The translations under genes were made by a program, and so were the position numbers. 64,000 nt of DNA, taken from Perna viridis. Its lineage: Eukaryota. Positions 9,001 to 48,000 of this stretch are shown piece after piece (the first letter of the stretch is position 1; the number at the start of each line of letters is the position of its first letter). The notes under the pieces were generated by a model. The model saw only the letters and a list, made by a program, of their open reading frames with translations, was not told the origin of the DNA and made no database searches. Location of the stretch: contig CM074515.1 in assembly GCA_037379345.1 (NCBI GenBank), positions 18,662,001 through 18,726,000 on the forward strand, in the 5' to 3' direction.

Positions 9001-12000
9001 ATTGCATTCCTGTGTACAAAATGTCATTTTCAATCTTTTTGAAAAGTCCAATAGAACAAAAATAATTACAGTATATAATCATACTTAGTAAGAGTATAAT
9101 ATTTATAGTAAACAAATTTTCAGGCATGGACATTCCTTTCTAAATCTTTGTCCTCTTTTCACTTTTGTGAGTCAAATTTAAATGTATCTAGTATGTAACT
9201 ATGTACATGTATGTGTACCTATGAGCTCACCTAATTTAGAAGCACCTACCTGTAATCACACTTGTAACGGCCTCTAATGGCATCAATACATTCACATCTG
9301 TAGTCACAACCATCATCCCATTTCTGACCTTGAGTATATGATCTTCCCTTGTACACACAAACTCCTAACAAAATTAAAATAATTTAAGTATCATTCTGTG
9401 TAAGAATCAGGCAATGGGTGGCACATCATTTTTCTTAATTTGATCTTTTTTTGCCTCAGATTTATTCAATACATCTGGTTAACAAACATAAAGCTATTTA
9501 AATTTATTCTACAGCATCTGTGACATAGATATTTCTTGACTGTTTATATTGGGAAAATGTGCAAGAATATTCTCCTGCCATTTTTACCTAATGGAGTTCA
9601 ACTAAAGTTAACCTATCAATATCTTAAAAAGGCAAACTGTACACAACACTCCGATGTTCATTAGCTACACCTTTTATACATTGCCTGATTCTTAGACAAA
9701 GAATTACTCAATGTTCAAAATTTTATGCATGTTTACTCAAGACACTTGCAAACTTTAAGAGTGAACTACAATTGCAACACAGACACTATAACTTAAATAG
9801 AATCAACAAATATGATCCTCAAAGTTAATATAAAGCTTTACAAAGCAAACATGATGGTGTTACCTTATTATCAGAAAATTATTCAAGTGTTGTCGGTATC
9901 TAATTGTTAAATATATTCATTCCAAATTACTTACATAATTGTTTTGAATGTAACGCAATGATGCAGTTTATCAAAATAAATATAAAATATGTTTAAGACA
10001 TTGTAAAATAAAATAGTGCTAAAAAAAGAAACATATAACTCATCATCAATTTCCTCCATAAACACGTGCTGAAATAAGAAACATGCATGCATTCCACCAT
10101 CAACATCCTACTTCCTAAAAGTTTCATGAGTACAAAATAATATTTTGTACCCTTTGTAAACTTAAAGGGTAGATTCATATCCAACCTTTACAAACATTAG
10201 GAGGGTTCAAGGATTTTAATTTTTTGTATTTCTTACGAGCTATTTGCAAGCCTAATTTCAGCTATGTAAAGTATAGATATGTTTTAAATCCATAGAAACA
10301 TCAGTTTTAAAGAAGAAACATCATTTTATTCATCAGTGAAAACAAATTTGTGTGTTGTAGTATCTAAGTATTAGAAACTGATGCAAAAAAAAAATCTGAT
10401 TTTGAAATTCCCATCCCAATTTTGTTTATTTTTGTCAATATTTTAGGGGTGGGAGTTGATGATAATCTACTATTATTTGGCCTTATTGCGCCAAGTCTAA
10501 TTCTATACATATATACATTATTAAAGCTTACCCTTGCCACTTCCAGAAATCTGGTTGTAGTTAGGATTAAGAGGACTTATTGTTCCTTGTCCAGTGACAG
10601 CTCCTTTGAGAGGAGTTGGTACAATGATTTGTGGTCTAGGAGTTGTTGGGGGTTGGCCCTTTCCTGTGTAAACAGCTGTGCTTGGGAAAAAGTTGCATTG
10701 TGGAACTGTACAGCAAGGATCATTACGGTCTGTCACAAGGGTACATGAGTTGGGAATATTGTTAAAGACTGGACATCTATAACAACAATAGAATTATTAT
10801 ATGTTTCATAATGAGTGAAAGTTGAATACCCCAAACATTGTAAACATATAAATTGTGAGAAACATTAAAATCTATCTAAACCGAACCCTGAATAATCCAA
10901 AAACCTGTCTACAACAAACCCTGAATAATCCAAAAACCTGTCTAAACCAAACCCTGAATAATCCAAAAATCTGTCTAAATCAAACATTTTGAAAATCAAT
11001 TTTAAAAACAGGAAAGGGTTTAGTTTAGACAGTTTGTACTGCACATCAGAAATGTATGACATATTACAAGAAAAGAATGTCTGAATTAAGAGAATATAAA
11101 AAAAACTTCAATCTGTGCATACCTCTGTGTACAACTGTATAAACCAGTTGATACATCATCACATCGACACCTCTTGTCACATCCATCATCCCAAGTCTGT
11201 CCTTGAGTATAATACACACCTTGGTACACACAGTAGCCTAAAATATATATACATGGTAGTTGAATATACACATTGGTACACACATTAGCCTGAAATACAT
11301 ACATGGCAGTGTGTAATACATATCTTGGTACACACAGTTACTGTAGCCTGAAATACATACATGGTAGTGTATAATACACACCTTGGTACACACAGTTACT
11401 GTAGCCCGAAATACATACATTAGCTGCAGTGTATAATACACTCCCTGGTAAAGTTAAAAGCTTGAAATATAAACTGCAGTGTATAGTTAAGACACACTTA
11501 ATTACACATAAATGTAAAGGTGTTAAATTCACTTATTGATGAGTGGAATTTTATCAAAAAGAGTATTTTAAGAAATAATTTGTGGAGGGAGTAGATTTGT
11601 ACTCATTTTAACATAGGTAAGGCATTTATATTTGATTATTTAATACCGAGCAACAGCAAGTAACTTTTGTGACAAAAATTTTCCTAGGCATAGCCAAACA
11701 ATGGCTGTTCCATTTAAATCCCCCGTAGGAAAGTTGGATTAAATTTGTATATTTATGTCATCATATGTGTTAAATGTTTGTATTTGTATAATTGATTTCA
11801 ATTAGATAACCTCTCAGCTGTTAAATTATCGCATAAACGTTTTGAAATGAGTGTTTTGTCTCGAAGCGACAGCGAAAAAAAGGAGACAAAGCACAGGTGC
11901 TAAAGGTGGGGTTGTACTGACATATACTGTTTGATGACATGAAGACCTCATATTAGAACTGTATGCAATGCACACCATAATTCACAAAATTACTTAAGTC

Positions 12001-15000
12001 TATATGTAAAACAAATCATATATGATTAACAGTGAATTTATAAAAACTTTCAGTAATAATATGATTATTATGTAATGACAAAGTGATTTCTATTGTCATT
12101 TGACAATATCTGTCTATACCTGACATTCCAAATGGAGATGGAGTTCCATTGCCTGTGATGGTATTGTTGGTTGGTGGGTTCACCACTATACTGGGGTTCC
12201 TGGTTGTTGGTACATATGGTATGTATGTTGGTGGTAAAGATGGGGTTGGATGCTGTTTGTCACAGTAGGGTACTGGGCAACATTTATCTTTAGGATTTTC
12301 AACCAGTGTACAGAATGGAGGAAGGTTGGGGTATGTTTGACATCTGGAATAAGAATAATATTGATCACCTAAACACAATTACACAAGTATCTACAGCAAA
12401 CCAATACTTATATACAGTAAAAACCTCTGTCCAATTCGAATGGACCATTGAATTGTGTATGTGAGGTATTGGGAGTTTGAGAACTTAAGTTCAGTTCCAA
12501 ATGTTTTCCTTCTTGAATTTCTACTTTATTGTTTGAAATTGCTTCCTTTCTACAAAGTTCTGATAGTTCTTGGACATTTTTGGTACTGTGATTAAAATGT
12601 TATAGTCAACAGAAATTGTCATCTGTTTTTTTTTATATAGCTCTTGTTCTTAGATGATAAACAAATATATAAAATGTACTGCAGAATCTCAAAATTAAGG
12701 GAGATAACTCTGAAAATGACACAAAATACAAAAGAAATTATTGGATTTTCAATGTGATTTATCTCATAAGAGCAGACAAATTGGAATGAATAATTATACA
12801 TTTCATTATATAGACATAAAGCAACATAATAACAAAATTAAAAATGTGTAGCCTTTTTTTGGGATGTATCACATTTTACAGAATTTGCATGATTCTTACA
12901 AAGACTGCTACTTAACATTAACTTTCAAAAGTTTTTCTATTTACAGACATTAAATTTACTGTTTTTTTATTTTATTTTAAAAGCTATGAATGTTTTTTCT
13001 TTGACTCCATCATCATAGCCTCAACAGAGCATTCTCAGTCAATATCACTTTAAACAAAAAACTAACTATATTTGGTGACGACATAGGGTTACTATACTCA
13101 TGGGTATTCTATGTGATAGCATGGCAAAACAACAGCATACAAAATTGTTTCTTGAAACTTTTATGACTTTCGTGTTTCCATGTCTTTTTTGAGATAAGTT
13201 ATAAGTATGGCTTACTAGACAAGTACAGACATCCTGCATGTAATGCTGCAATGGAGTCTGAAAGTTACTCTTATAGCTTACCACAATCTAACCATTTTTA
13301 GCATGGGTTATGAAAGGAAATTAATCATTAAATATGGTAATACAATCTGACCTTTCTGTGCACTTATATTGACCAATCATTTCATTGACACATTCGCATC
13401 TGTACTGGCATCCATCTTCCCACATTTGACCTTGAGTGAATGACCTTCCCATGTACAAACAACCTGCAATGTTAAATAACATCAACAGATTATTTATGAC
13501 TGAGTTGAAAAAATTATGACATAATTCATACTACAATCCTCTATTACTGTGAAAGTACTATTATTTGTGGGGTACCAGTTTTCATGTTTTTTTTGGGGTA
13601 TGCCAAACCACAATTTGGTACCCAGTGAAAAGGAAATTCCCATTGATGTGTATAGTGAAAACCTCAAAACAACAAATTTAAGAATCTACAAACTTGTGTT
13701 TCTTACCTAATGCACACAATTTAGTATCCAAGAATTAAAGAACTTAAGTAGTAATTAAACAGTACAAAGGGAGTAGGCAAGTGCATGTACACTTTTTACA
13801 GTGATGTAAGGCCTCAACAAAAACACAACAGAATTGGTTGTTTTAGACAGAAGAGTGAACAAATTATCTATTTTTGACATTCTTTTTCATTCTAACCAAT
13901 TGTGATGTCATCGTGGAATGCGTCAGAAATGTTGAAATGGGATTTCCCCAAGTTTACTGACTAATGTATCAAGTTTAATAAATTTAAAACATGTCATGTG
14001 AACCATTAAAACAAAACTATATAAAGCAGGCAGAGACACAATTAGGAAAATAATATTTTTTTTAAATGTAATAATGATCAGGAAAAAAAAATCTTCATTG
14101 AGGTGAAATATAACATAAATAATGAATGTATGTATCAATGACAAGGACATTGCTTCTGAGTTCCTTAATCTAGCTGGTTGAAGAAAACATCATTTAATTT
14201 CTAATAAAATACATGTAGTACACAAATTTATACTGAAAAAAATGTAAACTACTTTCAATACACCTGAATGAATATTAGATTTACTATAAGTCCCTCTCAA
14301 AGAGTCACAAGCTTATATAGTCTCAATTAAGTAGCAGTCTCTATAAAAATCAGACAGGAGGTAATTCATGCATGACAAAAACCCACCTAATTCATTTTAT
14401 TTCCTGAAACAGTTACACCGGTTACACATGATCAAATAATCAGTCTTAGTTTTCCATTCGGTTGTTATGCTTTTGAGAAACAAATTCTATATGTACATGA
14501 AAATGGCACTTAGGAAGAGTTATCGTTCTTAATTTTGTTTGATTTGGTTGAATATAGTGGGAAATGAATGCATGATTTTCTTAAAAGTACAAATCTGGAT
14601 ACAGAAAGGATTAACATTAGGCGTAAACATAGCATACGTAAAACTGAAAAAAAAATCATTGCTTGTTTCATGGGTTTTTCTACACAATGAATCATCTAAA
14701 TCTTACTGTCTGAATTTTAGGTGAACTGGTACTTAATAACATTTCCTAAATACAACTTCTCCATGATAGCAGTCTGCTTCATACCTAAGTTATATGGTCA
14801 ATAGAGGAATTTATTTGACTGGTTTTCTTGTAGATTAATGCAGGTACTACTGTTGCCCAGTTGGGATCAATAAATAACCTGGTAACATGGTTTGGACCAG
14901 GAGTTGTTTTGCTTAGCTTTGGTATATATATGGTGCCAAAACAGACCAGTTGGTCTAGGAGTGTACAAACCTGGCTTTTGTGTAGGTGGTGGCATAATTG

Positions 15001-18000
15001 CCCAATAAGGACAAGGCATTCACAAATCTGGCCTTGGTATAGGTGGTGGCATGATAGCCAACTTAGGAACATTAGTTTACTAACCTAGATTTGGTGAAGG
15101 TGTTGAGATGATCGCCCAGGTAGGATCATGAGTTTACTTACATGGTTTTGATGTAGATGGTGACATAATAGCCAATTTAGGACCAGCAGTTTACAAACAT
15201 GGCTTTGGTGTAGTTGGTGGGATGATAGCCGACGTAAAACAAGTAGTTTACTAACCTGGCTGTTGTGTAGGTGGTGACAGGATAGCCCAGTTAGAACCAG
15301 AAGTTTTCTTACCTGTATTTAGTGTAAGTGTTGGCATGATATCACAGTTTAATCCAGGAGTTTACAAGCTTGGTTTTGGTGTAGATGGTGGCATGATAGC
15401 ATATTTAAAACCAGTAGTTTACTAACCTGGCTTTGGTGTAGGCATTGACATATTATCACAGTTTGGTTTAGGAGCTTACTGACCTGGTTTGGTGTACATG
15501 GTAACATAATACCCTAATTAGGAGCAGGAGTGGCTTTGTTGTATGTGTTAGCCTGCCAAGTTTGGTCAAGGAGTTTACTAACCTGGTTTTCCTGTAAATG
15601 GTGACAAGATAACCTAGTTAGGAGCAGGAGTTTACTCACCTGGCTTTTAACCTAGTTAGGAGCAGGAGTTTACTCACCTGGCTTTGGTGTAGGTGGTGCC
15701 ATTGTAGACTGGTTTGGACCAGGAGTTACAACAACTATTTGTCCATTAGGTAATTTCATGGTTGGCTGAGGTGTAGGCATGGGTGTTGGGTTTGGAGCAC
15801 TGCCAGTGAAAGATCCAAAAACTGGTACTGGTGGAGTAAAGATACCAGGGGTAGGTGTAGCATTTGGTGGAATGAGATCACACTGTGGTACTTTACAACA
15901 CTGTGGGTCTTTAGGATCAGCTACCAATGTACATCCAGCAGGTAGACTGTCATAACGTGCACATCTAAAATAAGTATATGTGGGTTCATTATTAGTAACT
16001 CATAAATGTTATATAATCTTCATGGGCAATTTCAATACCTTCTGATCTATTTCTTTATTCATTAAACATCAACTCTTTTCATAAATAACAATGATATGTA
16101 TTCCAATAAATATTACAGATGATATTGTCACTCAGACATTCAAAAGAAACATGTCTACATTTATACAGCGAAAAGTAAATACATCTTAAATACAACTGAG
16201 TAAGGCAACCTGAATATTGTAATCATTTAGTGTAGCAACTTGCTAATTGTAACCACCAAGTGTACCAACCTAAATATTGTGATCACCGAGTGTAGCAAAC
16301 CTAAATATGGTGTCCATTGAGCGTAGCAAACCTAAATACTGGGACCACTGAGTGCAGCAACCTGAATATTGCGATCAATAAATTATAGCAACTTGAATAT
16401 TGTAATTCCTGAGTGTAGTAACCTGATTTTTCACTTAGTGTAGAGAAACTTTAACACTTCACCACTCAGCCCTGATATTGTTATCCCTGTTAGAATAACT
16501 CATTGTAACAACCTTATTATTGTTACCTGAAAAATTATGGGAAAGAAATGAGTACAAACCTCTGTTGACACCTATAGAATCCAGACATAGCATTTTCACA
16601 TCGACAGACCTGGTCACATCCATCATACCATTGCTGACCCTGTCTGTAAGCAACTCCATTGTACATACACACAGCTGTAATATCACAATAAATTACAAAT
16701 AATCAGTTTATACAAATATAGTACATTATCAGACTTTTAAATAATAAGATTTTTATTCCATCTTACATGTAGAATATATATTCTTTATTTAGTACTTTCA
16801 GTTGGTCTTGTAATGGCCTGAAAAGCATCATACATTCATCATCAAATCTAACTACAATGGTGAAAGGCATTGCAGAGTTTAGGGATACATACGTAGTGGT
16901 GCAGGTGTGACATAAGGTCCTGGTGTTACAGGTCCTGTTGGTGCTGGAGTAGGAACTCCAGTGTATGGTAGAGGTGTAACATTTGGACCAGGTGTTGGTT
17001 TGATAGGACAGAAAACAGTCTGGCAGCAAGCATTCTTAGGATCTTGGACAAGTGTACAGAATGATGGTATTTGTGGATGTCTCTCACAGCTGAAAATTAA
17101 TACAATATAAAATGCTTTTGTATTGATATTATAAAAAGAGTATAGTACAGAGAAATAAATTGTTAACATGCTCTTGACCTATATTAAACAATAAAGAAAG
17201 AAAATTGAGCATGGTTTACAAACATTTTAATCACTTTGAATGGGTATATGGGAGACAGTTAACTATCTGATGTGGATGATTTTGTGTAATAAACTTTTTT
17301 ATGTTAAAAGTATGAAATATATATATATATATTAGATGAATGTGCACTTGCTAATCTTCCAATAAGACTTTTGGTGGGGTACTTTCAATGGCAGCTATAT
17401 AAATGTGTGGGTAAAAAACTTTCAAAGTTGCAGTTTTTCACCTTCAATGCAGGAGACACATTCTTTGTGGGAGACAGAGCTTAAATGTGGAGTCTCCCTT
17501 AAATATGGGAGAGTTAATAGGTATGTGTTTATAAGTTTGGTTTGTATCCAATAAGACAGAAAACATCTTACACTTCTGTACATCTGTATCGTCCTGTTTG
17601 TTCATCAAAACATTCACATTCAAACAAACATCCATCCTTCCATTTCTGTCCTTGTCTGTAGATTTGTCCATTGTAAACACAGGCCTCTGAAACAAAATCA
17701 AAGTCATCTTTCATTTTTTCATTCATATCAAATATTAAATTACACATAACAGTACTCATAGGAATCTATAATAACCAATCACGCTAATATGTGAAAATTG
17801 GTGACATTCAGTATTTACCAGAACATTTCTTGGTTGAAACTGATTGAAATTATAAAGATCATACTTTCTACCATCTACGAACATACACATTCTTAAAATT
17901 AAATTATCTCCCTTTATAGTGATCCAACAACAGTTATATTCCTCCATGCATTTCTACACATGATGCATAACCTTCTAATAAAATTTCATCAAAATATGTT

Positions 18001-21000
18001 AGGCAGTGCAGTAGGATATGAGACGGTTCCTATATATTTTTTAATGTATTCAATGTATTCATTAGTTCATTTAAGAATTGGCTACAATAAAAATTTTGTC
18101 TATTGAAAAATAACAGAAAATTTCCACGTGCATATTGTTTATAGTGCGAAGTGCAATAAACAATATATGCTCGTGGAAAATTTATGTTATTTTTTCAATA
18201 GACAAATATTTTATCATAGCCAATTCTTATAAATTAATTTGAAAACATATTTTTATCTTAAAACATGAAAAAAGTAGCTCTGAATTTAACTGAATAAGGG
18301 CGTGTCAATATTTTTTTATCTATTGAGATAAAACAAAATTATTTGAACCAATCAGATTACAGTATTTATCTCAACTTAATTTATTTCCTTTTATATCTCA
18401 AAACATTGGCACATCACTTTAATACATGTATTAGGTCATGCTTCATTTAATTCATATTTCAAATCAATGTACAAATTCTTTGTGTTAAAACTTGGATTTT
18501 GCTGGTGAAACACTCAAATTGTTAGTGTAACACAGTATTTCACTTAGATTAGGACTGGGAGTTTCAGCGTTAATACTTTCTATGTATAGAGCTGAACCAC
18601 TTTAAACTCAAGCCACACATTTGTCTTCAGTAGATGTCTATAGAGAAAACCCACTAAATTCTGAGAGACAGGAAGGTTACTATTCATATAATTTGTTTCC
18701 ATTTGGTTGATTTTAGAGTGAGATGAATGTATGATTTTCTCAAAAGTGTAGATCTGAATATGGCAATGATTTTTATTATGTAAATATATAGCATACAGAG
18801 ACTGAAAAAAAACATTGTTTGTTCTGTGGGTTGCTCTACACCATGAATCACTTTACCATTGGCAATGTCTGGATTTTATATGGACTGGTACTTAATATAA
18901 TTATAACATTATCTTCATGGTATATCTAAGATACATTTGAACAAAAAGTCAACCTGCTATATGATTTTTAATGCTTGTATTTTTGTAAATAGTAATTTTG
19001 AAGAATAAATCAGTTCAAAATCCCTCAAAACAAGAAATTTTCCTCAGTAACATTAGTCCTTCCATCATCCCTACTTACAGTCTTTGTGTAAGTTTCTTTT
19101 TTTATTTCATTAGGTAAAGATATGTAACCATATAATAAGGTAATTGCAAGACTTTAATTTATAATGCATAACCTTGGAGCTGAGGGCAATATACAATCAT
19201 ATATATTAATACATGTATTATAAAGTTAATACTCCCTTAATTTATGAAATAATTTATTTATTATATAACAGAGTCAAAATTTTGTTTAAAACACCTTTTA
19301 AAGATAAAGCTATTGATAGTTTGATCAAACTATCTGCACCAATTGGAATTCATTGCATGTTTCCTTTTGTTTGTTTTGTACTAAATATCATGGTATATTA
19401 TAAACATACTTCCTGCATTAATCTGTGGTATATTCTGACCATTTGGTCCTTGTGGTGGTAAGCCTCCAGTAATAACACCTTTAGGTGCAGTAATTACTTG
19501 GTATGGGTTTTTAGGGTTAGGGTCAACACAGAGTGGAGCTTGACAACACTGATCGTTAGGATCTGTCAACAACTGACATCCTGCCTTCAATGGTGGGTAG
19601 GTTGGACATCTGACAATAAGAATAGTGTGTTAATACATACTACTGATACACATATCTCTCATCAATTTCGTTTCAATTTCCAAAATATGTTTGCAAAAGA
19701 CTGAAATGATGTTTTTAATTTCTATTAATATTTTCTGGCAACATAAAATAGAAGTAGTTATTACATATAAGGTTACACATTTACAAAAAAAAACATTTAA
19801 ACAGCTAATGCCTTCATTCACAACCCTTTATTTATGTTAAAAAGCTCCTGTCTTCATTCACAACTACTGGTACATCAGCTAAATAGCCCATACCTTCATT
19901 CACAACCTCTGGTACAAGCTAAAAGGCTCCTCCTTTCATTACAATCTCTGGTCCAAGCTAAAAAGCCCATACCTTCAGTCCAACCCCTGGTACAAGTTAA
20001 AAAGCTCACACCTTCAGTCACAACCCCTGGTACAAGATGAAAATCCCAAACCTTCATTCAAAACCCCTGGTACAATCTAAAAAGCTACAACACTCAGTCA
20101 CAACCCTTGGTACAAGCTAAAAAGCTCCAACCTTCAGTTACAACTCCTGGTACGAGATAAAAACCTCCCGTCTGCAGTCACAACCTCTGGTATAAGCTAA
20201 AAAGTCACAACCCTTTGTTCAACTTAAAAAAGCTCCTTCCATCATTCACAACCCCTGTTATATAATAAAAAGCCTCCTGTCTTCATGAAAGTTTTAAATA
20301 TCCCCATCTTTTATTAAAAAGGCATTTGAATAAACTAAATTTTATTAAAGATGACAAGCATAAATGAAGATGGCCATGAATAAATAGTTACCTGTCATCA
20401 CAGTTAATTATATCATTATCAGCATCATCACATCTACATCTCTTCTCACATCCAACATTGAAAGTTTGTCCTTGTCTGTATGGTATACCATTGTAAATGC
20501 AATATTCTGAAATTGATCATAGAACCATGAAATTCAAATCGGAGGACAAAAACGCATGATAAACCAAATAACAATTATGATCTGATTTACACAGTGAGCT
20601 GCTGATTATTACATTTGTACAATGATAAAGAAAGAATAGACATGGCAGAATGCAACAAAAGTTCTTCAACATGGGTAAACACTCCTTTAAGCAAGCTCTG
20701 AAAGTTCCAGACCAACAAAAGTAATAGTTCCACGGTAACAGATATTGATAACAATTTCTCATAATCAAACTAAAAAGTAATATAACTTCACAAACACACA
20801 GTAAATGCCTGTAGAATCACCACAAGGTTTTCAAAAGTAAGGCTCTGTTTCTCTAATATTCTCAAATTGTTGTGAGAAGCTAATCCAACACACAATACAT
20901 TTTCTTAATTTTGTGTGACCCTCTGGATAGCATTAATCAATATAGCAAAGTGAAAACATACATGGGACCTGCCAAGAGGGTGGAATCTCCCATTTTTTAA

Positions 21001-24000
21001 CATAGTCGCCTGTCCTACTACTTGGAAGATCAAACACCAATTTGATAATACAAAATTGTAATAAATGATATATGTGAATATCAGAGTCAGCTACTGTACA
21101 CAGGCAGATATTTTTCACATGAAATTCATGTTAATCAGGCTTCACATGAAATTCATGTTAATCAGGCTTCACATGTAATTCAAGTGAACTTCACATGAAG
21201 TTAACATTGTTTTCACTTGAAATTCACTTAACATGAATTGCATGCAAACAACTCATGTGAATTTCACATGAAGGCTTGATTCACACAAATTTCACATGAT
21301 CTCTGTTACAAATTTATTAGCTCAGTTCAGGTGAAAATCATTTGAAATTCATGTTAAAATTATGTGAAATAAGTTATAGACCTTATTTTTGCTATTTTCC
21401 CAATGGACAGACAACTGCAAAAGATACTACCAGCGAAATGATTTTTTGAACACTATATGACGCCTACCATTTTTTCTGAAACAGTGAAAATAGATACCCA
21501 TGAATAAGTCCATTTGACAGAATCTAAGAATGTAAGCAACCACAAAAATCTATACATAAACAGTACCCTATGTTTATGTCTGACATTACACAATTAAAGT
21601 TAAGAAGATTACTGTACTTTTATACAACCTCTTAACATGCAATTCATTTCTGCCATACTTCAATGACGACAAAGGCAACCAAAAATTGTCACAAAAATAA
21701 TCAAGAAAGTTAAATGTTGCTATTGTTAAATAGTCACAACCTTTTGATGAAGTATGTTGATTTAAAAACATCCTAAATGGAGGTCTTAACTCCTGACCAA
21801 AATGTTAAAATTTCCATATCAGAGTTTCAAGGTTTACAATATGTACCATAATTCAAAACTTAAACAGCACAACCATCAATTATCTTTACTTGTATGTAGA
21901 AAAAATCATTTAACACACATCATAAGATGAGTGAACTTCAAAAATTAATGTCATAAGGTGATTAAATTGCAACTCTACAATTAAGATAAAAAAAATCAAA
22001 ACAAAAAAGTCACAATGCTATTAAAATAAAGAGGAAATGTACATCTAGCCAAGTATCAAAGGGAATTTTCTGATATATACTTACTTGGTTGAGGAGCAAG
22101 AGGATTGTAGGTTGGTGGCTGGATAGTCTGGTTGGTACCTGGAACTGGAGTTACACAGTCTGGCAATGGACAACATGGGTCTTGTGGGTTGTACTTCAGC
22201 TTACATGTTGGTGGTATATTGGTCATATCTGAACATCTGTAAAATGATATTATCGATAATTAGTACTGATCTAATCTTTATATCAATCATTAAGAAACAC
22301 TGACAACCTACATGTTTGGACCACCTACATGCAGACTCATCTAAAAAAATCAAAATGGCCAAACATGTTTTTAAAATGTTTGACAGTGTCATTTTCCTCC
22401 TTTGATAGTGTTTAACATTACCATTCTCCTCCTTGGATAGTGTTTAACATTACCATTCTCCTCCAAGGATAGTGTTTACCACTGTCATTCTCCTCATTGG
22501 TTAGTGTTTAACAGTGTCATTCTCCTCTTTGGTTAGTGTTTAACATTACCATTCTCCTCCTTGGTTAGTGTTTAACAGTGTCATTCTCCTCCTTGGTTAG
22601 TGTTTAACATTACCATTCTCCTCCTTTGTTAGTGTTTAACAGTGTCATTCTCCTCCTTGGTCAGTGTTTAACATTACCATTCTCCTCCTTGGTTAGTGTT
22701 TAACATTACCATTCTCCTCCTTGGTTAGTTTTTAACATTACCAAATATAAGAAAGAAACTATTTCTGTTTACATATACACTTGTAAAGTTTTCTCATTGC
22801 ATCCATGTGTAATTACATAGCAATCCACCAATGAGGTTTGTCTCACAGGAAAAAATGCAACATATGTTTTCATATGTTTTAAAACATATGGATACATATG
22901 CTTAGGACCAAAATTGGAATAAATAGTTTTGTACCTATAAAAAACACATGGAAATAGTTTTTTGCCAAAGCTATACGAAACCCATATTCTTATAACTCAT
23001 TAAGGCCTATGGATAATATATATTTCACATATGATTTATATTTTTTTATAAGTTAATTTGTTTGTCAAACAAATTTATTTTTCACGGTGGTGCTTTATAG
23101 ATGAAAAACATATGTATTTCAAGTTTTTTTTTCAAACATACAAAAAACATATATTGCAATTATTCCTGTGTACCAAGGTATCACTTATGCAGTCCTCTCT
23201 TGGTATAACCATACTGACATGCGCAGTAACACAACCATCTTGCCATGACACCATTCATACCTTGGAATACATTTGTGAAGTCCTCTCTTGGCATCCTCAC
23301 ACTGACATGTATATTTACATCCATCCTGCCATTTCTGGCCTTGTTGGTAGAAGTTTCCATTATAGATACACACCTCTGTAAAATGAAGTAAATAATAATC
23401 AGTTCTAATAAAAACCAGGCAAAACTACATTGATATGTGGCTATCATCCCTGAATAGATCAATAAACCAGGCAAAACTACATTGATATGTGACTATCATC
23501 CCTGGATAAATCAATATTTTACTGTTTTTAGTTCACTCCATCAGTGCTATGTTCCTAAGTGATCCATTACTGTAAACCTAATTATTTTTGCAGTGTACTA
23601 ATTTTTTCTATTTTTGCAGTAGACAGAAAATCATGAAAAATAGTGCACACTAAAGTCATTTTTACACTATATAACACTAATCATTTTTTTAAACCATGAA
23701 AAATTGATAAACCCATAAATATGTTCATTTTAAAGAGTCCATTGAAACTTGCAACCACAACAATTAATGTTAACAGTATATTCAAATGCTTCATTGATTA
23801 CTTTATATTTGTTTCATTGATTATTTTATATTTGCTTCATTGATTATTTTATATTTGTTTCATTGATTATTTTATATTTGCTTCATTGATTATTTTATGT
23901 TTTAACAGTTTCAATGCTTTTTCATAATGTCTTTTCAAGTTTTTAGACAAGGTTTTACAAGAAAATGTATAAAAATATGTTTTCCTTACTGCAAAAAGAT

Positions 24001-36000: not shown

Positions 36001-39000
36001 CAGGATTCTAAATTTATCGAACATTGATCATTTAATAGGACTACCAAGTTCCAGGTGTAATTATAAGATAAATAAATTATATTTTTATAGGCAACTTTTT
36101 GTTTACTCTAGACAATTACCTGAGCTCAGTAGCAGTTCCAAAGGGTAGAAGTCATAATGTATATATTTAAAAGACATTTGCTCTTCATAGGCAAATAAAA
36201 TCAAATTGTTAACTACAAAGTTATATATTTACAGTGAAAAATAGCTGAACTTATACTCTTTTGGACTTTAAAATGTGTTTGCTCATTCTAATTGATATGA
36301 AGGGAATTGAAAAATGTCTGGTTTTGGGATTATTCAGGGTTGTTTAGACAAGTTTTGGAATTATTCAGGGGTCTGTTTAGAAAAGTTTCATGGTAATTAC
36401 TTGAATATCCAGTTTGTATTGCTGGAGGTAGTGTGAAGGTGTATGGAGTGGGAGGCTGTGTGGGTTGTGGTGATGGTGTAGGTTGTCCTGGGTAGTATGT
36501 AGGTTTGGGTGTTGGTACATATGATGGCGGTGGTGTCAGAACCTTCTGTTCACAGATTGGTTTTTTACAGCATTGGTCATTGGGGTCTGTAGTTAGATAA
36601 CAACCACTTGGAAGCTGTGGCCATTGTGGACATCTAGTAAATAAAATAAAAAAAAACAAATGAATAAAAAGTTGATTTACCTGGTATTGTTTATTTTAAA
36701 TACCAGTCTTTATAAAAATCAGATGGAAGGTGATTCATGCATGTCAAAAACCAACCAAACTTAATCTTATCTCTAAATTCAGTAATAGTTACAAACTGCT
36801 AAAAACAGTGTCAGTATGTCATTTGGTCTTTGAGATAACAATTATAATGATTGTGTACAAAATTTGCACATTGTTCTTGATTTGGTTTGATTTGGTTGAT
36901 TTCAGTAGGAAATGAATGTATGATTTTCCTCAAAACACAGATTTTAATATAGAAAGGTCCATTGTTATGTAAAGGTATTGCATATGTACCAAAAAGGCAT
37001 TAGTTATTAGGTGAATTTTTTATTTCACAGTGAATCTTTTTGACATAGGAAGTATCTGAATTTTGTTTTATATGGACTGGTACTTAAACTGTTGTTCAGG
37101 TAATGCAATTCTAAGTTCACTTTATATGTATAGAAAGCTTAAAGAAACCAAAACGTGAAAACATCTTTTCAAGATATTATATACACAGAGCATCTGCATT
37201 GTCGTCTGTGTGTAAATGCTCTGAAAAAGTGCTCCATCAGAAGTAAGTTAATAATGAAGTACTGTGTGTAGTAAGGAAGAGATTTGTTATAGGGAGTCTC
37301 ACATATTCCCATTGGTCGAGATATCAGTAATATCACAACATAGTAGTGAATTATTATCGAAGTCAAATTTTATAAATTGAGAACAAATTAATAGTTCTGT
37401 ATCTCTTAAACAAAGCCTAAAATCATATTATAATTAAACTAAAAGTTTAAACAACCAATTTGTACCTGTCATCACATCTATAGAATCCAGTAGTAGCATC
37501 CTCACAAATACATTTCAGATCACAACCATCATTCCAAGTCTGGCCTTGTTTGAATGGTACACCATTGTACATACAATAGGCTAAAATAATCCCAAAATTA
37601 TACTGAATCACAAGGTTTATGTCTCATCCATACTGATCATATCTACTGGTAATTTAAGTTTGTATGTGTAGACAAAAAAGTATCTCCACACAATTCTAAG
37701 GCTCAATGGGTAAAGTTCAGTGGATCATAAATTCCTGGTAGTATGCACTATTACTTATCATGTCCTAACTACCTAAGAAGTTTTGACAAAATTTGGTGAT
37801 TAATTAGTTTTGAGGAGCTGTGCTTACAATGCATGACAGTCAGACAGGAAAAAAATGAGGGGAGGATTATAGTAAAATGGTTTCTTGGAGATTTGATTTA
37901 TAATAAATAATATGGATTCTTGGAGACCTGCTTTCTAATAAATAATATGGTCTGTTGAAGATCTGCTTTCCAATAAATAAACACATATATGTAAGAATCT
38001 TCAGCTTCTTTGCTGTTTCAAGCTTTGCTCTGTCAGCTTTGGGAAGGTAAATGCTTGCAATATCTGGTCTAGTACTGACCTGGTTTAACTGAAGGACCAA
38101 CTGTTTTTATTGGTGGAGGTGTGAGTGTGAATGGATTAGGAGAGGTTGGTGGGGGACAGTAAGGCTTCTTGCAGCATGGGTTGGTGTAATCCACAACTAG
38201 ACGACAACCAGGCTGTAAGTCAGTGTATTCTACACATCTACAAAGAATCATAACATGTTAGAGTACACCCTTTCATGTTCATTTTCTGAACAGAATTGAT
38301 TGGTACTTCAGGAAGGTAAATGCTACACCTACCAAAAAAGCTCTAATAGTTTCCAATATTTTTTTTTACAGAAAAGTGTTGCACCTATCTTGCAGAATTA
38401 CCACCTGAGTCTGTGCAGAAAAGTATCATAAATTGTCAATATTTACATATCAACATATTATGTTACAGATGTCTAAGTGTCATATTGAATTTTTTTAAAC
38501 AATTTAACAAAAATCTAAAATTGCAAAATAAAAAGCATTAAATATTACCATATAGTGAGTTGTACTACAGGATACTGTTCAGGATACTACAATGATATAA
38601 AAGTGTACACTTACTTCTCTTTACATCTGTAGTTGCCCAAGTTATCTAGGCATTCACAGTCATACTGACATCCATCTTGCCATTGTTGCCCTGGGGTGTA
38701 TGTCTTACCCTTGTACACACAGTAGTTCTCTGAAAATTGTAATCACCTTTATTATTCTTATTTATTATTGGTTACAATACTGGATATTAATGACTTTTGA
38801 CTTTAAATGCTGAAAGCGTTTCATCAGCAAAAATACCCATGTATGCTGACGAGACTTAAACAATCTTATTTTAAATGAAGTCCATATATTCAATACAAAA
38901 CCAGTAAAACTGTGCAACAATCACTAAATTGATACCCCCACTCCCTCATTAAATAACATGCACCTTTTAACCTCTAAACTGATTTGGATCAAAATCTAAA

Positions 39001-42000
39001 AAAAAGAGAATGATGGTGATATGTAATAAAGATTCTGTGAAAGTTTCATTAAATTCCATTCAACAGTGTAAGAGGAGTAAGGGATAAGAAATGCATTCCC
39101 TATGTACCCATGTTCAAAATAGACAAAATCCATGTTTTGCTATGTGAAACTCCAAAATTCTGTTGGATCAAAATTTAAAATAGGAGGTGCAAAATAGGCA
39201 TATGTAGTAAAGCTTCTTAAATTCCATACAGGGATGATGGAAGAGTAACAGATAAAAAATAGGTGCTCACTGCATAACCAACAGAAGGACGAACATCCCT
39301 ATCACTAAATACCCCCACCCTTAGCAAATGGATGGTATACAGAAGTTCTACAGTGTCAAATTATTTAATTCTACAAAATTTTCGTCACATAAAATTTATA
39401 TCTGTTGAAAATTGGACTAAAAAATCTTCAAAAAAGTCAGCCTTTACTTTTTGTATTAAAACCATAAAGATGTATGAACAACTGATTATATCTTCATTAT
39501 TTATCATTTACATGTTACAATCAAGATCAAAGATGAACAAATTTTAAAAAAAATCAACCTAAATTCAGTGTGTGCTCACTAAAACCACAAATAGACAGAC
39601 AGACAGACAAGCTGGTATTTGTAAATTCCCCTCATATTCTGGTTGCATGGATTATACAGAACAATGGTAGTCTTGAAGTGAAGGTAGAAAGTTTCTTGGT
39701 CAGCCAAATAGGCAAGATGTACTATTCTCCCAGACATTCAAAGCTGAAACTAATGTGTTTATAAGTGACAATGAGTTAATATGACTCTTGATGTTGTCAT
39801 TAGAATTTGCTGATATCAGCCTTTATGGAATAGATTTCCGACTTGTTTGACCTAAACCCAAACTCAACTTTTTTCTCTAATATAAGCGGTCAAAAACTTC
39901 CAAAATTTCTGTCTGATATTTCCATCAGTCAGACAGTATTTCATAATGACTGATATATGTAGCCCCAGACTGAAAATATCTGTCAATAAGACAAATTAGG
40001 AAATTGATAATGATACTGGTGAACAGTATTGTAGAGGTACTACTCACGTCTGTATACTGGAGGTTGTGTCGTCTGAGGCAGAGGAGATGGAGTTGGTCTG
40101 GTCTGTTTGCTTGGTAGAGGATATGGTGTTGGTTGAGCACTAGGTGTCTGTGTGACAACTGGTGGATAGAATGTTGGTGTAGCTGTTGGTTGTACATTAT
40201 TTGTGTAAGGTCTTGGTGATGGACCAGGAGTGACAACACCTCCAGTAATCAGTCTGGTTGGAATGGTATAGTATTGAGGTGTGGTCTGACCAACTTGAGG
40301 TGGGGGTGTACACAAAGGAACCTTGCAGCACAATGGGTCCTTAGGATCTGGCTGCATAGTACAACTAGAGTCTACCTGAGGAAGTTGTGGACATCTAAAA
40401 ATAGAAACATTTACATTTTTTAACAAGGATGAAATTTTGACATAGCATATAGTTTTTCACAATGAGAGAATTTGACAAATAGCCTCCTATCACATCATTT
40501 TAACTGAAGAATACAGTAATTCATTGAAAGTATTCAAATAGAAACAAAAAGTTTAGAACTAATTAAAGTTTAGCAAATTTATGCTGATCCATACAATTAA
40601 ACAATCATAAAAAAACAATTGCAATGCCCATTTTATGTTTATCATACCTGGAGTTACATCTGTAAACTCCTGTAGTACCATCTTCACAAACACAAGAGAA
40701 TTCACAGCCATCATACCATTGTTGTCCCTGAGTATAGGCAATGCCTTTGTACACACAAACATCTGAGATAAGAAAATGTAATTAAAGTATCTCCATCTCT
40801 TAATCTAAATTGTTTACTACACCACAACTTCAAAACTTCCCATAATAAATGGCAGTATTACTTCCTTTAAATCACTGGCCCTGTGACTGCCTTTAAATCA
40901 CTGGCCCTGTGACTTCCTTTAAATCACTGGCCCTGTGACTGCCTTTAAATCACTGGCCATGTGACTGCCTTTATTACTTCCCCAGTAACTCATATTTGGG
41001 GTAGCAGAGAAAATAATCAAGGGAACCAAGGTTATAGTGGTAATCAAAAGAATGAAATCCAGGGACAAAGACCAGACAAGAAAAACAGACATACACGACA
41101 ATTGATTTTTGGGGTTTAACGCCTGAGCAGCAATATTTCAGCTATATTCAGGCGAACATGAAGTAACTTAAATCATACATACAAAGTAACAAAAGCATAT
41201 GAGCAACTCAGACTCCACTAAAAACTGGGAGCATGGATCAGGTGCACCGGTAGGATAAGCATCCTCTGCTTTTCTAGAAACACAGAATTATACACTTTTA
41301 TAACAGATTGTGACACTACTAGTAGACACTAATATGAGAATACTAGCAATGTAAAATAAAAACCTAAACAACAGAAAAATTCAACATAAAACCAATGATT
41401 CAGCTATAAACATTAAACCTATTGATATACAGGGTACACATTCACATGAGACATCAGTAAGTAACACTAACTTCTTTGCTGGGTGGGTACTGGTTCTGGT
41501 GTCTGAGATGGTGTTGGTCTGAATGTATATGGTGGATTGACTGGTGGAGTTACTGGTGGAGCCTGTGTTGGTGGACCAGTGTAAGGTGTAGGACTTGGAG
41601 TCACTGGAGGAGCCTGTGTTGGTGGACCAATGTAAGGAGTCACTGGAGGAGTTTGTGTTGGTTGGCCTGTGTATGGTGTAGGACTTGGTGTTGGCTTAGG
41701 AGTTGTTTGTGTTAGACTGTAACATTCTGGGATTTGACAGCATGGTTTTCTGGGGTTCTTGACCAATCGACATGTACTTGGAAGGTTGTTGTATACTGGA
41801 CACCTAGAATGAATCATAACAGTTGTTTGTAGATAGAACCAAAAATAATATTTAAAAATCAATGATGTTTTATATAACAAGCCAAGAATCATCAACTAAG
41901 TCAACTCTTCTAAATAAGCTAACTTCTGAAACATATCATGATATTGATCTTCAGTAAGACCTACAACCATAATTATCTACGTTCAATATCTACATAAAAT

Positions 42001-45000
42001 TCTATAACACTGATGTCAAATTTTATCACAGAACAATGTAAGTACCACTGAAATTGTTATATAACACCAACACAAACGTTCTTGGCAATAATCATTGACA
42101 CATCAATCAAAAAACATCTATACAAGGGGTCCAAAAAGTCTCATTTCTGTTTTTATACATGGACTAACTGATATATCTATAAAATATGACTTTATACCTT
42201 AAAAGGTCTTTTGATACAGTAAAACACTTGGTCAAATAGATAAAAAAATGGCTTACTTGGGTGAGCATCTGTATCTTCCTTCATTGGCATTGAAACATAC
42301 ACAGTCATAATCACATCCATCTTCAAAGGCTTGTCCCTGGGTGTACTCTCTACCTTTGTATATACATACTCCTACAATATACAACATAATAAGTGATCTT
42401 GACAGTTAGAGAATTTTGTACTGAAGTAAGAAACAAGTAAGGATTAAAAATTAGAGAGGTTGATAAATTAAATCCATGTTAGTATTCCGTTACATGATAA
42501 AACATTACCTAATTTAGCTGGAGTTGGTGTAGGCTGGCCTGGGATTGGTGCTGGTGTTGGGACATAGACCTGTCCTGTAAACTCATGGACCTTCATGGTT
42601 GGGACTGGTGTTGGTGGATTTGTTTGTCCAGGTATAGGAGCTAGCGTTGTTCCAGTACAGAACTGTGCCAAACAACATGGGTCACGTGGGTCTGTCATTA
42701 CTGAACATCCCTCTGGTACATTAGGATCAAGTGGAGCACATCTTTATAATAATAATAAACCATTACATTTAGTGTATTAAAAAGGGGGATACTTTTGAAA
42801 AAAGATTATAATTGACAAATCTTAATGTGGAAAATATTACACAAATATAACACATGTCTTAGCATTTTTTGAAAAATCACTTCAACTTATTTTATGAAGT
42901 GATAGCTATAAATGATTTTTAAAGATCACCAAAACTCTTTAAAAATGTAAATTTTACTGAGCAATTTTTAGGTCTTATTAATGCTAATATATCAAAAAGT
43001 TTTTTCAAAAGTTTCAATTTGATTAATTAAAAAAGCACAATGCAACAGTGTCAAAACCTTTAACACACCTCTGGTTACAGGTGTAAATTCCTCTGCTGGA
43101 ATCATCACATCTACACTTGAAGCTACAACCATCTTCCCATACTTGTCCTTGGAGATAGCTTACTCCCTTGTATATACAGTATTCTGTTCAAACAAATATA
43201 TCAACTATTTATACTTTTCAGAATAAAATGAATAAATTTTTTCCTAAGAGATAATTTCTATTTTTAACCATATGAGATTACTATCCATGTGTTAACGCAA
43301 ATGAGTAGCATTCATAATTTCATAGTTATCCCTAATGTAATTTGAAAAACGAGAAAAAAAAACAAACACTGCCAGTAAAGACAAGAATAATAAACTGGAA
43401 AGAGTGAATAACCTAACTATGATCACAGAAGAATGCCATGATTTAAAAAGTGTGCAGAACTTGTTCTACACGTAAATTGAATCTTAATGCGTTCTTGGCA
43501 CAATTGATTATATTTTTTTTATTTCACAATAATAAATTGGTTGTCTCATTCTTTACATATATTTTCTCTATTATTCATTGCTATCTTCACATAAAAATTC
43601 AATTTTGTGAAAGGCGGATTGGTATGTATGTCGTGATGTTATGGTGGGAGAAAGTGCAAGAGCGAATGAATAAAAGAATTAATTTTACAGTGAGAATTGT
43701 TACAAAAATTTTACATAAGGAACAATTGGTATATCACTGCTATCAATATAATAATAGGAAACCCGAGACAGCCTCTGGAACGTTTCCAATGTTATAAAAT
43801 TATCAACACGCTGTTAGAGAACCTGACATCTTTGTTTAATTGGTTGTTACTTGGTGGATGACTGTCTCATTGGGAATTGTACCATATCTCCTATTTTCAT
43901 ATCTTACTTTTGGACATCTCCATGGTTGTCAGAGATTTCTCTGAGAATCTGACATCTTGCCTTTGGGTATCTCCATTGCTGCCTAGGATTTGTATGAGAA
44001 CCTGACATTTTACCCTTAGGAATCTCCAAGGCTGTCTGAGTATTTTTTCTAAGAACTTGACATCTTTCCCTTGAGCTTGTCATGGCTGTCTTGGGTTTCT
44101 CTGTCTTGAACTTTCAGCAGCTATATGGTTTTAATGTCTACAACCACTTCTTCAGTTTTAACAAATTCTAAGTTGTATCAGCCTAAGTTTACTTAATAAT
44201 TAGAGTACTGTCATAATTAAGGTATTACTTACGCTGTGTTGGTTGAAGTGTTGGTGGTAGGTTGGTTGCTATAGAATAAACCTTGGTTGGTGGTGGACCA
44301 GTGACTGTACATTGTGGTTTCTCACAGCATGGATTGGCAAAATCTCTGACCATAGTACATCCTGGCTTGAGGTCGACATAAACTGGACATCTGTACAAGA
44401 ACAATGAACATTCTTCATACCAACTTCCTCAAGTTTAAAGCCAGAAATCTATGTCTTTGTGTCACATTTTAATATATTCTTGACTTATGTTCAAGAATTA
44501 CATTTAAAACTTCTTGATATTTATGTTTTTAACTACTGCCTTGATGATAACATTGGGAAGGGGGCAAAGAACAGAAACATGTGAAACAATAAATAAAAAC
44601 AGAAAATAATCATTAAAAAAAGGTAAAGAATAGAAAACTCTCAAAATCCCAGCAAAAAAAACACATGAAAATTTATAAATATGGGCAATACCTGATAACC
44701 TTTAACATTCTATTTATCTCAACAGTTTGGAAATACATGTTCACTAGTTGATTTAAAAAATTGAAATTAATGTGTAGTATGAAAAACAAATCTAAATTAA
44801 AAGAAGAATGGCATTCATCTTAACCTAAGGATAAACTCTTTCTCTAACAATTCACAAATGTAATCAGAGAATCTAATATTAAAATCAGACTAATGGTATG
44901 ACATGAATTTGAAATAAAACAAACAAGATGAGAAAAAAATAATAATTCATTACTGAAATAAAAATTTGAAAAAAAGTTTTTGTTAATATATATACAACTA

Positions 45001-48000
45001 GCTTCATCTGATAAATACAAGATAGAAAAAAACAATACCTGTCAGTACAGGAGTAAGTTCCCTTGATCTCATCCTCACACTGACAAGTGAAGTCACAACC
45101 ATCTTCCCAGATATCGCCATTCTTATAGGCTTGTCCCTTGTAGATACATACTCCACTCTTACCTACAATAGACAATAACCATGGTAACAACACCAACAGA
45201 AAGTAACCATGGATACAGGATTATCTTATGCATACTGATTTGCATGAAAGTACAATATTGTCAGATTTCAATTTCCATAACTCCTTGGATCATTGGTATA
45301 CCATGTAAATGAAGTTCATTATGTAAATGGAAAATTTGTGACCTTCTTATCTTCATTAGAAGATTTCATTATCGTTTTCACCTTTTCAAAAGAATGACGA
45401 AGCTTTTAACCTACAGATTTATTTCAATAGTATACCTTGAAAACTGGTTTCCACTCCAGTGTATTTTGCTGGTGGCACCACTGAGTTTCCAGAAGTTCCA
45501 CCCTTTGTTCCACAAACTCTCATCTCACAACAAGTTGGATCACGAGGATCACGAATTAACTTACAGTCTGCTCCTGTACTCAGTGGGTATTCTGGACATC
45601 TAAAATAACACATACAAGTAGTGGGATGAAACAGTATTTCTCATGTTCTACTCCCTATAGATACACTTCAAAAATTGAAGGTAATCATTCTTGATATTTT
45701 TTAATAAACAGATATTTCAGATTTTTCTCGAAGTTTACATTGAATTAACATCTGTAAAATTTCAATTAAAAAACACTGGAAATCAAACTTGCTTTCAAGA
45801 TAACTGAGCCTTCATGCAGATGATTTCCTACAACTCTTTATTTAGATTATGTGGGGAATTTTGACTTCATTGCTGAGAAATTCTTGAAAATTTGTTCAAA
45901 AAACAATTATCTAACATTCTTTCCTATTTCAAAAAGAAAATAAATTTCAACATCATTTCCAACATGATATTTGTTCATTGAAAACTCATACTTCTGAAAA
46001 AGTTTGCATGATGACAAAAAAGAATGCTCAATGTGATAGGTATGATCTACCTAAGTTAATAACTTTTCGTTAAAGATCAGGTAAGGAAATTTGAGATAGG
46101 TAAACTTTAAAGCTGATTCTACTTCAGAATTAGTCTGATAATATACCAAGAGAAACCTATAGATAAATTTACAAACCTGCTGAGACATCTATAGATACCA
46201 TTCTCAGCATCCTCACAGGTACATCTGTAACTACAGCCATCATACCATGTCTGTCCTTGCTGGTAAAATTCACCATTGTAACTGCATACTCCTATAATGA
46301 TAAAACTAAAGTATTTTATAGCTGGTCCAATTGGCATCTAGAATTTTGACAGTGAAACAACAGCACTTCAAATAAAAAAATGAGCACGGATAGGTCGGAC
46401 ATGAGAACTTCCAAAAATATTACCACCAGAGAGGCATAAGATTAGAATCCACAAGAACACAGTAAACAATGGTGACCTTTACACAGTTGGAGAAGAATAA
46501 GAAAGAAAGAGCTGGAAAATATTGGAAAGACCAGGAATAACACAAAAAGAACTGCCTGAAATAGATTGAGATGGAGAATGACTGTAACTTCACTATGCTC
46601 GGCAAGGAACAAAGACGACTTAATCAAAATGTGTAAGCTGGCTTCTACCTATTAGATGTAAACAAATGGTTTACATTTTTTTTGTAAATATTAATACTGA
46701 ACTTCACTACTAACTAGAAATACTGCAAGAAAACTCACAAGAATTATCTTATACCCTTAAATTGAAATTAAATGTCTTTTTTGTGGTGACCTGAAATTCA
46801 TTATCTTCAATCATGCAAATATAATACAATACCAAACTTTCCTACAATCTGTAGAATGGTATAGAAGTTGCTTATGAGGATTCAACACTTAAGCCCCTCA
46901 TTTTGGATTATATCGCTCTCACGTAACATACAATAATTATTTTCCATTATTCTTATCTACATGTGATGCCTAACCTTTCAACAAAGTTTCATCAAAATCA
47001 ATTGAGCAGTTAAAGAGCAATTGAGCTTACAAGATGTAAGAACAGAATTATTGTGGGACATAAAGACAGACTTAACCAAGGGGTGTAATAAAATTAAAAA
47101 TAAAACAAAAAACAAATAAAAAAGATGTGTCATGTAATCAATTGTCTTGAAATAGATAGAGGACTCACCTTTCTTAGTTGTGGGTGTGGTCCTAACTCCA
47201 GTGATGATATCATATTTTGGAGGAACTCTACATCTTGGAACCTTACAGCATGGGTTTTCTGGATCCTGGATTAAATAACAACCAATTGGGAGGTTGCTGT
47301 AGTGAACACACCTAAAGAAAAAAACAGTTAGTTACAGTTCATGTGACTGACACACCTACAGGCACATACCAGTGGTTAACAATTCGTGTTACTGACACAT
47401 CTACAGGCACATAACAATGGCTAAAAGTTTGTAAGACTAACACACCTACAGGGAAAATCATGCATTTTAGTTAGTGTATCTTACACCCTGAACATAAAAA
47501 ATAACCAGACTTAACACATATTTATAATGTAGTAAAAATTCTTAAAATTCATGTAGCAAATTATAAGCACCTTTTACAAATTGCGTTAATATAAATTATT
47601 CATCTATAGTGAAAGGGGCTATATTTGTTTTACCAGTTACAAGTATTGTTATTTAGTGAATATTTTAGCTTACACACTAAAAAGACATTAAATATTCTTG
47701 TGTCAAAAAGAAACTTATAAACCCAGACAAAAAAAATTACCAGTTTTACAATATTTAAGTATCAGAATGATGTCTAAAAAATGACTATGTAACCGTCAAG
47801 AATTTCTTACAATATTGTATAGTTTTGTTTTTATCCTCCAACTACATTTTCTAAATAAAACATGTGAAATTTGTCCAAAATAGTTTATTTTTTTTCAGCA
47901 ATCTTTTGAGCGTGGTGGTCAGCAAGGGCATTTTAAAACTTGTTACCTGTTTCCTGTTTTTGACATTGCTCATAACTGAAAAAGTAACCAAGAGATGCTA

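Follow-up and report, generated by a model that had tools for sequence, protein, structure and literature searches.

The minus strand of a 64,000-nucleotide stretch of the Perna viridis genome (assembly GCA_037379345.1, contig CM074515.1, positions 18,662,001 to 18,726,000; hereafter the window) carries a single spliced gene coding for VWA domains, ShK-like domains and 31 VWC modules with Pro/Thr linkers. Most of this array follows a repeat unit that we call X-A-X-C, in which the odd modules form one class and the even modules alternate between classes A and C. The period is real and ancient, has nested components of two and four modules, and is found position for position in bivalves and gastropods. 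We consider it probable that ancient duplications of exon blocks built the array and that selection on class-specific hinge residues has likely kept it.

The lag-4 signal in the window gene

A reading of the sequence alone had proposed a hidden four-module period between positions 10532 and 46291 of the window. Both coordinates proved exact, 46291 being the acceptor of the N exon of module 6 and 10532 the donor of the C exon of module 24. The array was said to comprise 28 modules; we count 29 that can be aligned, followed by two tail modules, with most of module 29 and modules 30 and 31 lying to the left of the window. The ten cysteines with their CxC and CC patterns are present in 29/29 aligned modules. 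Modules 6, 10, 14, 18 and 22 combine WYDGC with a longer loop before the CC pair (DPRDPTCC, DPKDPLCC, DPKDPQCC, DPSDPECC and DPKDPQCC, respectively), as described, and both marks together are exclusive to them: the extra residue occurs in no other aligned module, and module 1 has WYDGC alone. Likewise, modules 8, 12, 16, 20 and 24 all contain G[VI]x[YF]xQGQ[TV] and a TDPND-like segment (TDPND, TDPRD or TDRND), and the CRCDD motif attributed to most of them is present in four of the five, module 12 having CICED. Five marked modules would fall at an exact step of 4 among 23 slots with a chance of 2e-4, and at some constant step, whatever its size, with one of 1.6e-3.

Mean identities between the 29 modules at lags of 1 to 8 are 45.3, 47.4, 45.1, 49.0, 45.0, 46.7, 45.5 and 48.8%. 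Identity at lag 4 thus stands above that at other lags, as the sequence-only reading had anticipated (49.0% vs ~45% at odd lags; permutation p = 1e-4, or 7.5e-4 after correction over 8 lags). Two exons encode each module: the N exon runs from phase 1 to phase 2 and usually has 115 bases, and the C exon bears the Pro/Thr linker, so that blocks of modules can be copied in frame. Block duplication is supported, since N exons alone (z 5.6) and C exons alone (z 5.8) each carry the lag-4 signal, which also persists without the two markers of the earlier reading (z 5.8). The proposal of an 8-exon block therefore stands as far as block duplication goes; one unit is an exception in its exon structure, its 7 exon junctions being moved by an intron shift in module 14. 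Third codon positions show no lag-4 excess (60.5% identity, p 0.81), and intron-intron BLAST gave no match joining like introns four modules apart, which indicates that the copying is old. On modules 9-25 alone, the lag-4 signal loses significance (corrected p = 0.10), and hence a single gene gives just modest evidence of the period.

Conservation of the X-A-X-C unit in bivalves and gastropods

A search among proteins of 2,770-5,000 residues yielded 20 long homologues, from bivalves or gastropods only. They share the architecture of the window gene and are 51-81% identical to it position by position; the closest named proteins are two from Mytilus galloprovincialis, with module identities of 80-81%. 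According to half-module profiles, 11/20 have all 31 modules in order, and 5/20 are cut at one end but contiguous internally. The remaining four (from Mercenaria, Nucella, Haliotis rubra and Aplysia) miss half-modules, which we read as gene-model faults. None of the 20 has an extra internal module. After an ordered alignment had given each module its position and incomplete modules had been set aside, profiles built from gastropods only placed 233/308 bivalve modules exactly, and bivalve-only profiles placed 219/262 gastropod modules exactly, without use of their order. At positions 5-25, 82 of the 87 misplacements remained within class. A module resembles its counterpart at the same position in snails more than it does modules at other positions. 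Gastropods and bivalves split in the Cambrian.

Position-by-position identity across the homologues peaks at lag 2 (z 5.2) and lag 4 (z 7.0). The class means define the repeat unit: A-A and C-C pairs are 52.1 and 51.7% identical, A-C pairs 48.9%, and odd-even pairs 45-46%. Four distinct classes, in which the odd modules would be split into B and D, were ruled out, as the odd modules are inseparable by class means (B-B 49.4, B-D 49.0, D-D 48.5%). The four-module period of the sequence-only reading is thus real, with three classes rather than four. A weak lag-4 signal nevertheless persists when the odd modules are taken alone (z 2.6 at lag 2 and 2.9 at lag 4), and for 16/23 positions the nearest position lies at a multiple of 4.

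Class A is marked by a 10-residue loop between the seventh and eighth cysteines (C7-C8), present in 96/99 modules at positions 6, 10, 14, 18 and 22 (two are unparsed and one has 9 residues) and in 1/363 modules at the other positions between 4 and 26. In head-type modules (1-3 and 27-30), this loop is mostly of 8 residues. An aromatic residue at position 15 is found in 92/99 A modules vs 3/363 others. A Gly-hydrophobic motif in the linker, a pattern picked after looking at the linkers, follows 125/190 even vs 24/212 odd modules; the linkers were not used in defining the classes. Prediction of complexes between this motif and neighbouring even or odd modules (P0033 fragments) scored 0.02, and since it was alignment-free and the method is unproven on peptides, it bears neither way.

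Class-specific residues at the hinge of the VWC fold

A model of a class-A homologue has the two-subdomain beta fold of VWC domains. Its best match is the vWC domain of CCN3 (Foldseek probability 1.00, E 3.4e-3; VIA Z 6.7, which is middling, root-mean-square deviation 3.6 over 61 aligned residues), and the collagen IIA vWC domain gave Z 4.9. A PDB sequence search returned one weak match, also CCN3 vWC (E 0.14). Against Pfam PF00093 (gathering threshold 27.6), module 14 without its last cysteine scored 20.6 bits and the whole homologue P0002 48.2.

In a solved VWC domain, the C2-C8 and C6-C9 disulfides connect the two subdomains, according to the accessible part of PMC6270503, and this region has been described as a bendable 'Cys-knuckle' (PMC10082768). 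When the order of the cysteines is used to map module residues onto this hinge, Tyr15 comes three residues ahead of C2, the extra Pro of class A adjoins C8, Arg37 directly precedes C6 and Asp56 is near C8-C9. Arg37 and Asp56 are present in 202/202 and 201/202 even modules, respectively, vs 110/220 and 103/220 odd modules, and within odd positions Arg37 alternates with Lys. Arg37-Asp56 is also the top covarying pair among 1,342 column pairs within positions (z 9.7, next 6.4), although the homologues are related, so that z is a ranking and not a probability. The Arg37 codon spans a splice junction, a possible added constraint; that of Asp56 does not. We predict that the two residues form a salt bridge locked in the even modules, and the hinge geometry would differ by class. 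Conservation of this kind indicates that selection acts on class-specific residues, which would make the pattern more than a neutral fossil.

Paralogues, short forms and module trees

The C9:44.2 Mb and C5:2.7 Mb paralogues share the register of the window gene, with 31 modules each. In contrast, the C5:47.3 Mb paralogue has 27, missing precisely modules 14-17, of which no remnants were found within the 7,000 and 900 bases searched. It clusters with scallop proteins (0.95, FastTree), one of which possesses modules 14-17; its state is thus a loss. This loss is one event, and no two positions resemble each other more than 14 and 18 do. The expectation that module counts of orthologues would change in steps of four was therefore not borne out, the count being nearly fixed at 31 except for this single in-register loss. 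Two long-form lineages appear to be older than the gastropod-bivalve split, with weak support (0.59, FastTree on concatenated modules). Between modules 12 and 13, the C5:47.3 Mb paralogue carries ~1,900 residues of Pro/Thr/Tyr/Gly tandem repeats (C5 47,331,900-47,338,900), which read as a putative mucin-like central domain, and Ruditapes P0006 has an insert of similar size, also between modules 12 and 13. In module 25 of the C5:47.3 Mb paralogue, the N and C halves lie within one frame.

The C5:7.6 Mb locus codes for a short form of nine modules, namely modules 1-4, an X module, a single long-loop module and another X module, then three ShK-like domains and two tail modules. Its module-3 N exon occurs in duplicate (C5 7.62 Mb). 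A copy at C5 19.3 Mb is partial in the stretch read, its X module and ShK block occurring twice, and additional module matches are present at C11 25.0-25.2 Mb and at C5 8.18 and 28.58 Mb. We examined 21 proteins, comprising 11 bivalve or gastropod short forms, three from octopods, one from the brachiopod Lingula and six long-form fragments. The octopod proteins correspond to the first seven modules of the short form. The Lingula homologue has 10 modules with X/even alternation and no long loop. Searches based on shared words among proteins of up to 5,000 residues detected no long form from cephalopods or brachiopods, which is weak evidence.

The long-loop module of the short form groups with class A in both the maximum-likelihood (ML) tree (91%), which omitted the octopods and one Lingula module, and the neighbour-joining (NJ) tree (58%), which omitted Lingula; class C also groups (60-61%). 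The module tree proposed by the sequence-only reading thus recovers the A and C positions as groups, and its deeper order is weakly resolved. Loop lengths (9-9-10-9) and linker motifs are compatible with a short-form core made of exactly one C-X-A-X unit, but module 4 of the short form mostly scores as odd-type or module-4-type and not clearly as C.

Origin and maintenance of the period

We propose the following scenario. The N exon, C exon and linker of each module permit in-frame copying of blocks. The first unit would have been an odd-even pair, the alternation being present already in the 10-module brachiopod homologue. Even modules would then have diverged into long-loop A and short-loop C types, and about five copies of a four-module block (modules 4/5 to 24/25) would have arisen before the gastropod-bivalve split. 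The count was steady at 31 thereafter, and introns and silent sites hold no trace of copying. In even modules, the conserved Arg37 and Asp56 would be locked as a salt bridge, and A modules would have, in addition, Tyr15 and a Pro next to the C2-C8 disulfide. Such class residues would set a hinge angle or a binding face for each class. The product would be secreted and O-glycosylated, a mucus or matrix scaffold built like beads on a string, with the VWA head as its anchor, displaying three kinds of VWC site in a fixed order at distances that are not fixed.

Several observations weigh against this scenario. Most deep nodes of the trees have 40-77% support on 65 columns, which leaves the order of duplications weakly resolved, and module 4 joins the short-form module 4 in the NJ tree (47%) and class C in the ML tree (54%). 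The short form may be a reduction rather than an ancestor, since the end of the brachiopod protein looks like modules 24-29. Gastropod-only profiles place only 15/29 modules of the window gene exactly. Nine of the 20 long homologues are incomplete gene models, their rows are related, so that counts are not independent events, and larger arrays could be missed by a search that ended at 5,000 residues. Finally, the length of the C7-C8 loop is stable at nearly every position, and its retention alone is thus no proof of selection on the period.

The period might also be read as a neutral fossil, the duplications having frozen once the repeats were too diverged to recombine, with classes equivalent in their job. 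Growth by several domains at a time is common in repeat arrays (accessible part of PMC1553488), introns and silent sites no longer share any similarity that could drive recombination, and the identity excess is just 3-4 points, all of which such a fossil would explain. It sits poorly with an Arg37 that is invariant in even modules while swapping with Lys in odd positions, with an aromatic residue 15 (Tyr/Phe) in a column that is free outside class A, and with a linker motif that tracks the even modules, and we regard it as improbable. We give hardly any credence to a recent or ongoing process, in which unequal crossing-over or gene conversion would homogenize every fourth module in this lineage. 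Modules 10, 14, 18 and 22 of the window gene are 55-64% identical, as this would predict, but the lack of a period in third positions and introns, and the closer resemblance of modules to the same snail position than to other positions, speak against it.

A further explanation, to which we attach a low but not negligible probability, is that the order itself is functional, chains zipping side by side, A to A and C to C, or matching a periodic partner as titin does the thick filament. X-A-X-C as a binding code, in which class-specific VWC faces would zip chains in register along a flexible glycosylated backbone, seems to us similarly doubtful. The 31 modules are fixed in several paralogue lineages, the sole clean loss removed four modules in register, and the N-leaves of VWC domains dimerize in the MUC2 stalk (PMC10082768). 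Nevertheless, positions 14 and 18 being the most alike, recombination alone would favour losing four. In addition, the linkers of the window gene vary from 22 to 90 residues without a four-fold pattern (medians of 53 and 55 after A and C, respectively), and the C5:47.3 Mb paralogue and P0006 accommodate their large inserts between modules 12 and 13. When six modules were modelled together, confidence was high within the modules and low in the linkers, and the predicted template-modelling score (pTM) was 0.28, from a shallow alignment of 22. With linkers of ~20 to 1,900 residues and this pTM, physical length per repeat is not constant and a titin-like rigid ruler is unlikely; the titin-style structural register put forward by the sequence-only reading does not fit linkers that are long, variable and predicted to be disordered. 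Fixed spacing of modules is thus unlikely, while pairing by order only is possible.

Layout of the gene

The gene starts with a signal-like exon, after which come two VWA domains and a pair of ShK-like domains. A single ShK-like domain then separates modules 1-2 from modules 3-29, and three more ShK-like domains precede the two tail modules. All features below are on the minus strand of the window. The first coding exon (63752..63824) was delimited from an open reading frame and a donor, matches the N-termini of Mytilus P0015 and P0017 and probably encodes a signal peptide. The VWA domains lie at 61400..62029 (Pfam VWA, E 6.8e-45) and 60260..60850 (E 3.3e-43), with approximate exon limits. Two ShK-like exons, also approximate, follow at 59589..59750 (Pfam ShK, 20.2 bits, slightly below the cut-off of 20.9) and 59259..59414 (19.2 bits, below the same cut-off). 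Modules 1-2 (54770..57637) are of the head type with an 8-residue C7-C8 loop. The ShK-like domain between modules 2 and 3 (approximately 53875..54027; Pfam ShK, 20.2 bits) is at the same place in the homologues. Module 3, of the head type, and module 4, with a 9-residue loop and an uncertain class, span 49576..52259.

The X modules are numbers 5 (47169..49122), 7 (44233..45162), 9 (41472..42371), 11 (38080..38729), 13 (35153..36007), 15 (32524..33015), 17 (26129..28271), 19 (22085..23375), 21 (16893..17686) and 23 (12120..13463). Class A comprises modules 6 (45436..46291), 10 (40048..40762), 14 (33354..34846), 18 (24946..25749) and 22 (15678..16674), each with WYDGC and the 10-residue loop, and class C modules 8 (42509..43183), 12 (36401..37580), 16 (30052..31557), 20 (19410..20506) and 24 (10532..11237). 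Module 25, of class X, and module 26, with a 9-residue loop and outside the period, occupy 4562..9364. The head type recurs in modules 27 and 28 and in the first part of module 29 (1..4211), and the gene continues to the left with the three ShK-like domains and modules 30-31.

AG/GT ends flank every one of the 57 modelled exons, and the stretch from module 5 to the N half of module 29 translates into 2,848 residues without a stop. Contigs assembled from runs of several studies, presumed to be RNA, connect the exons as in the gene model, and a single 12,240-base spliced contig spans both regions examined. Among the matches listed, no GT-AG joint corresponded to module skipping by alternative splicing. 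Module 14 lacks the intron between its N and C halves and has a new phase-0 intron after CC (exons 34846-34662 and 33600-33354), the joint 33600/34662 being present in 4/4 runs examined. This change is shared by the C9 paralogue and not by the C5:2.7 Mb paralogue.

Other features of the locus were observed. Modules 27-29 (window 952-4211 and module 29) have the same 8-residue loop as modules 1-3, and module 28 has a 10-residue insertion following its first cysteine. Module 30 (C5 about 18,655,770) is devoid of the seventh and tenth cysteines, as are its counterparts in the C9 paralogue and Mytilus P0015; their joint loss is a natural match to a C7-C10 disulfide. The last C-half exon (module 31) is present in two copies, at C5 about 18,652,410 and 18,650,060, possibly alternative 3' ends. 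P0001, P0002 and P0173 have an extra domain of ~190 residues after the last ShK block, without a Pfam match and absent from Mytilus P0015. A high-copy repeat element, with very high read depth and many loose ends, is found in two introns (window 28902-29102 and 41014-41283), and further dispersed repeats are common to several introns. On the same strand, two open reading frames ~23 and ~43 kb to the left of the window resemble a rhodopsin-type G-protein-coupled receptor by eye.

Relation to known proteins and biological meaning

The window gene has the full layout of a molluscan 31-module VWA-ShK-VWC family. Its entries are annotated as 'uncharacterized', 'collagen alpha-4(VI)-like' or 'mucin-2-like' (P0005-P0024; short form P0029 and P0195-P0204; octopod P0178 and P0185; Lingula P0028). 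The family sequences that were viewed showed no collagen triple helix. Some homologues carry the automatic name kielin/chordin-like; Chordin, Kielin, CRIM1 and Crossveinless-2 share the ten-cysteine VWC fold and differ in architecture. The stalks of VWF and gel-forming mucins are similar in that they, too, belong to large glycoproteins and consist of tandem VWC domains whose knuckle, made of two disulfides, can bend, as presented in the accessible text of PMC10082768, but the mollusc proteins have 31 modules vs 3.5-6 in that text, linkers between all modules, and VWA and ShK-like domains. Pfam scans of P0001 and P0002 and precomputed domains of the 20 long homologues contain no VWD, C8, TIL or cystine knot, and Mytilus P0015 ends shortly past module 31. 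Linkers 5-25 are 35-53% Pro, Thr and Ser, as in mucin-type segments. Given the predicted signal peptide, VWA head, disulfide-rich beads and such linkers, the protein is likely a secreted, glycosylated scaffold of mucus or matrix.

As in the super-repeats of the titin A-band and nebulin, similarity peaks at a fixed multi-domain lag, position-specific residues are conserved across species and the duplicated multi-domain unit matches a block of exons. In contrast to titin and nebulin, the mollusc gene codes for extracellular VWC modules with long, variable Pro/Thr linkers and three classes in a nested 2/4 period. Notch, fibrillin and comparable extracellular arrays also keep repeat count and position identity across very distant animals, with EGF-type modules and short linkers. 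The kind of process is already known, since arrays usually grow by several domains together (PMC1553488) and titin keeps position-specific residues (PMC10665226), as far as the accessible parts of both papers go. The family itself is apparently unstudied: our literature search, with most subscription papers and supplements outside its reach, found no paper describing it, nor do the accessible parts of PMC6641155, PMC7333891 and PMC10326224 describe it. Shell or mucus proteome tables may list its members under other accessions. The accessible part of PMC5854119 mentions a shell protein of an oyster in which VWC is repeated six times, its link to the family not being established.

These results define a widespread family of giant molluscan extracellular proteins in which the growth of a repeat array can be read unusually well: the long form has stayed frozen and can be set beside a short paralogue, an outgroup from a brachiopod and a natural deletion of four modules. 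The family thus allows a direct test of the old question of whether function maintains super-repeats or they are mere remnants. The predicted Arg37-Asp56 switch and the class-A markers would be hinge variants of the VWC domain that occur in nature and bear on the mechanics of VWF and mucins. If the order of modules does act as a binding code, this super-repeat would encode order without spacing, unlike titin or nebulin, and a 31-bead 'barcode' fixed since the Cambrian would set the assembly of mucus or matrix fibres in molluscs.

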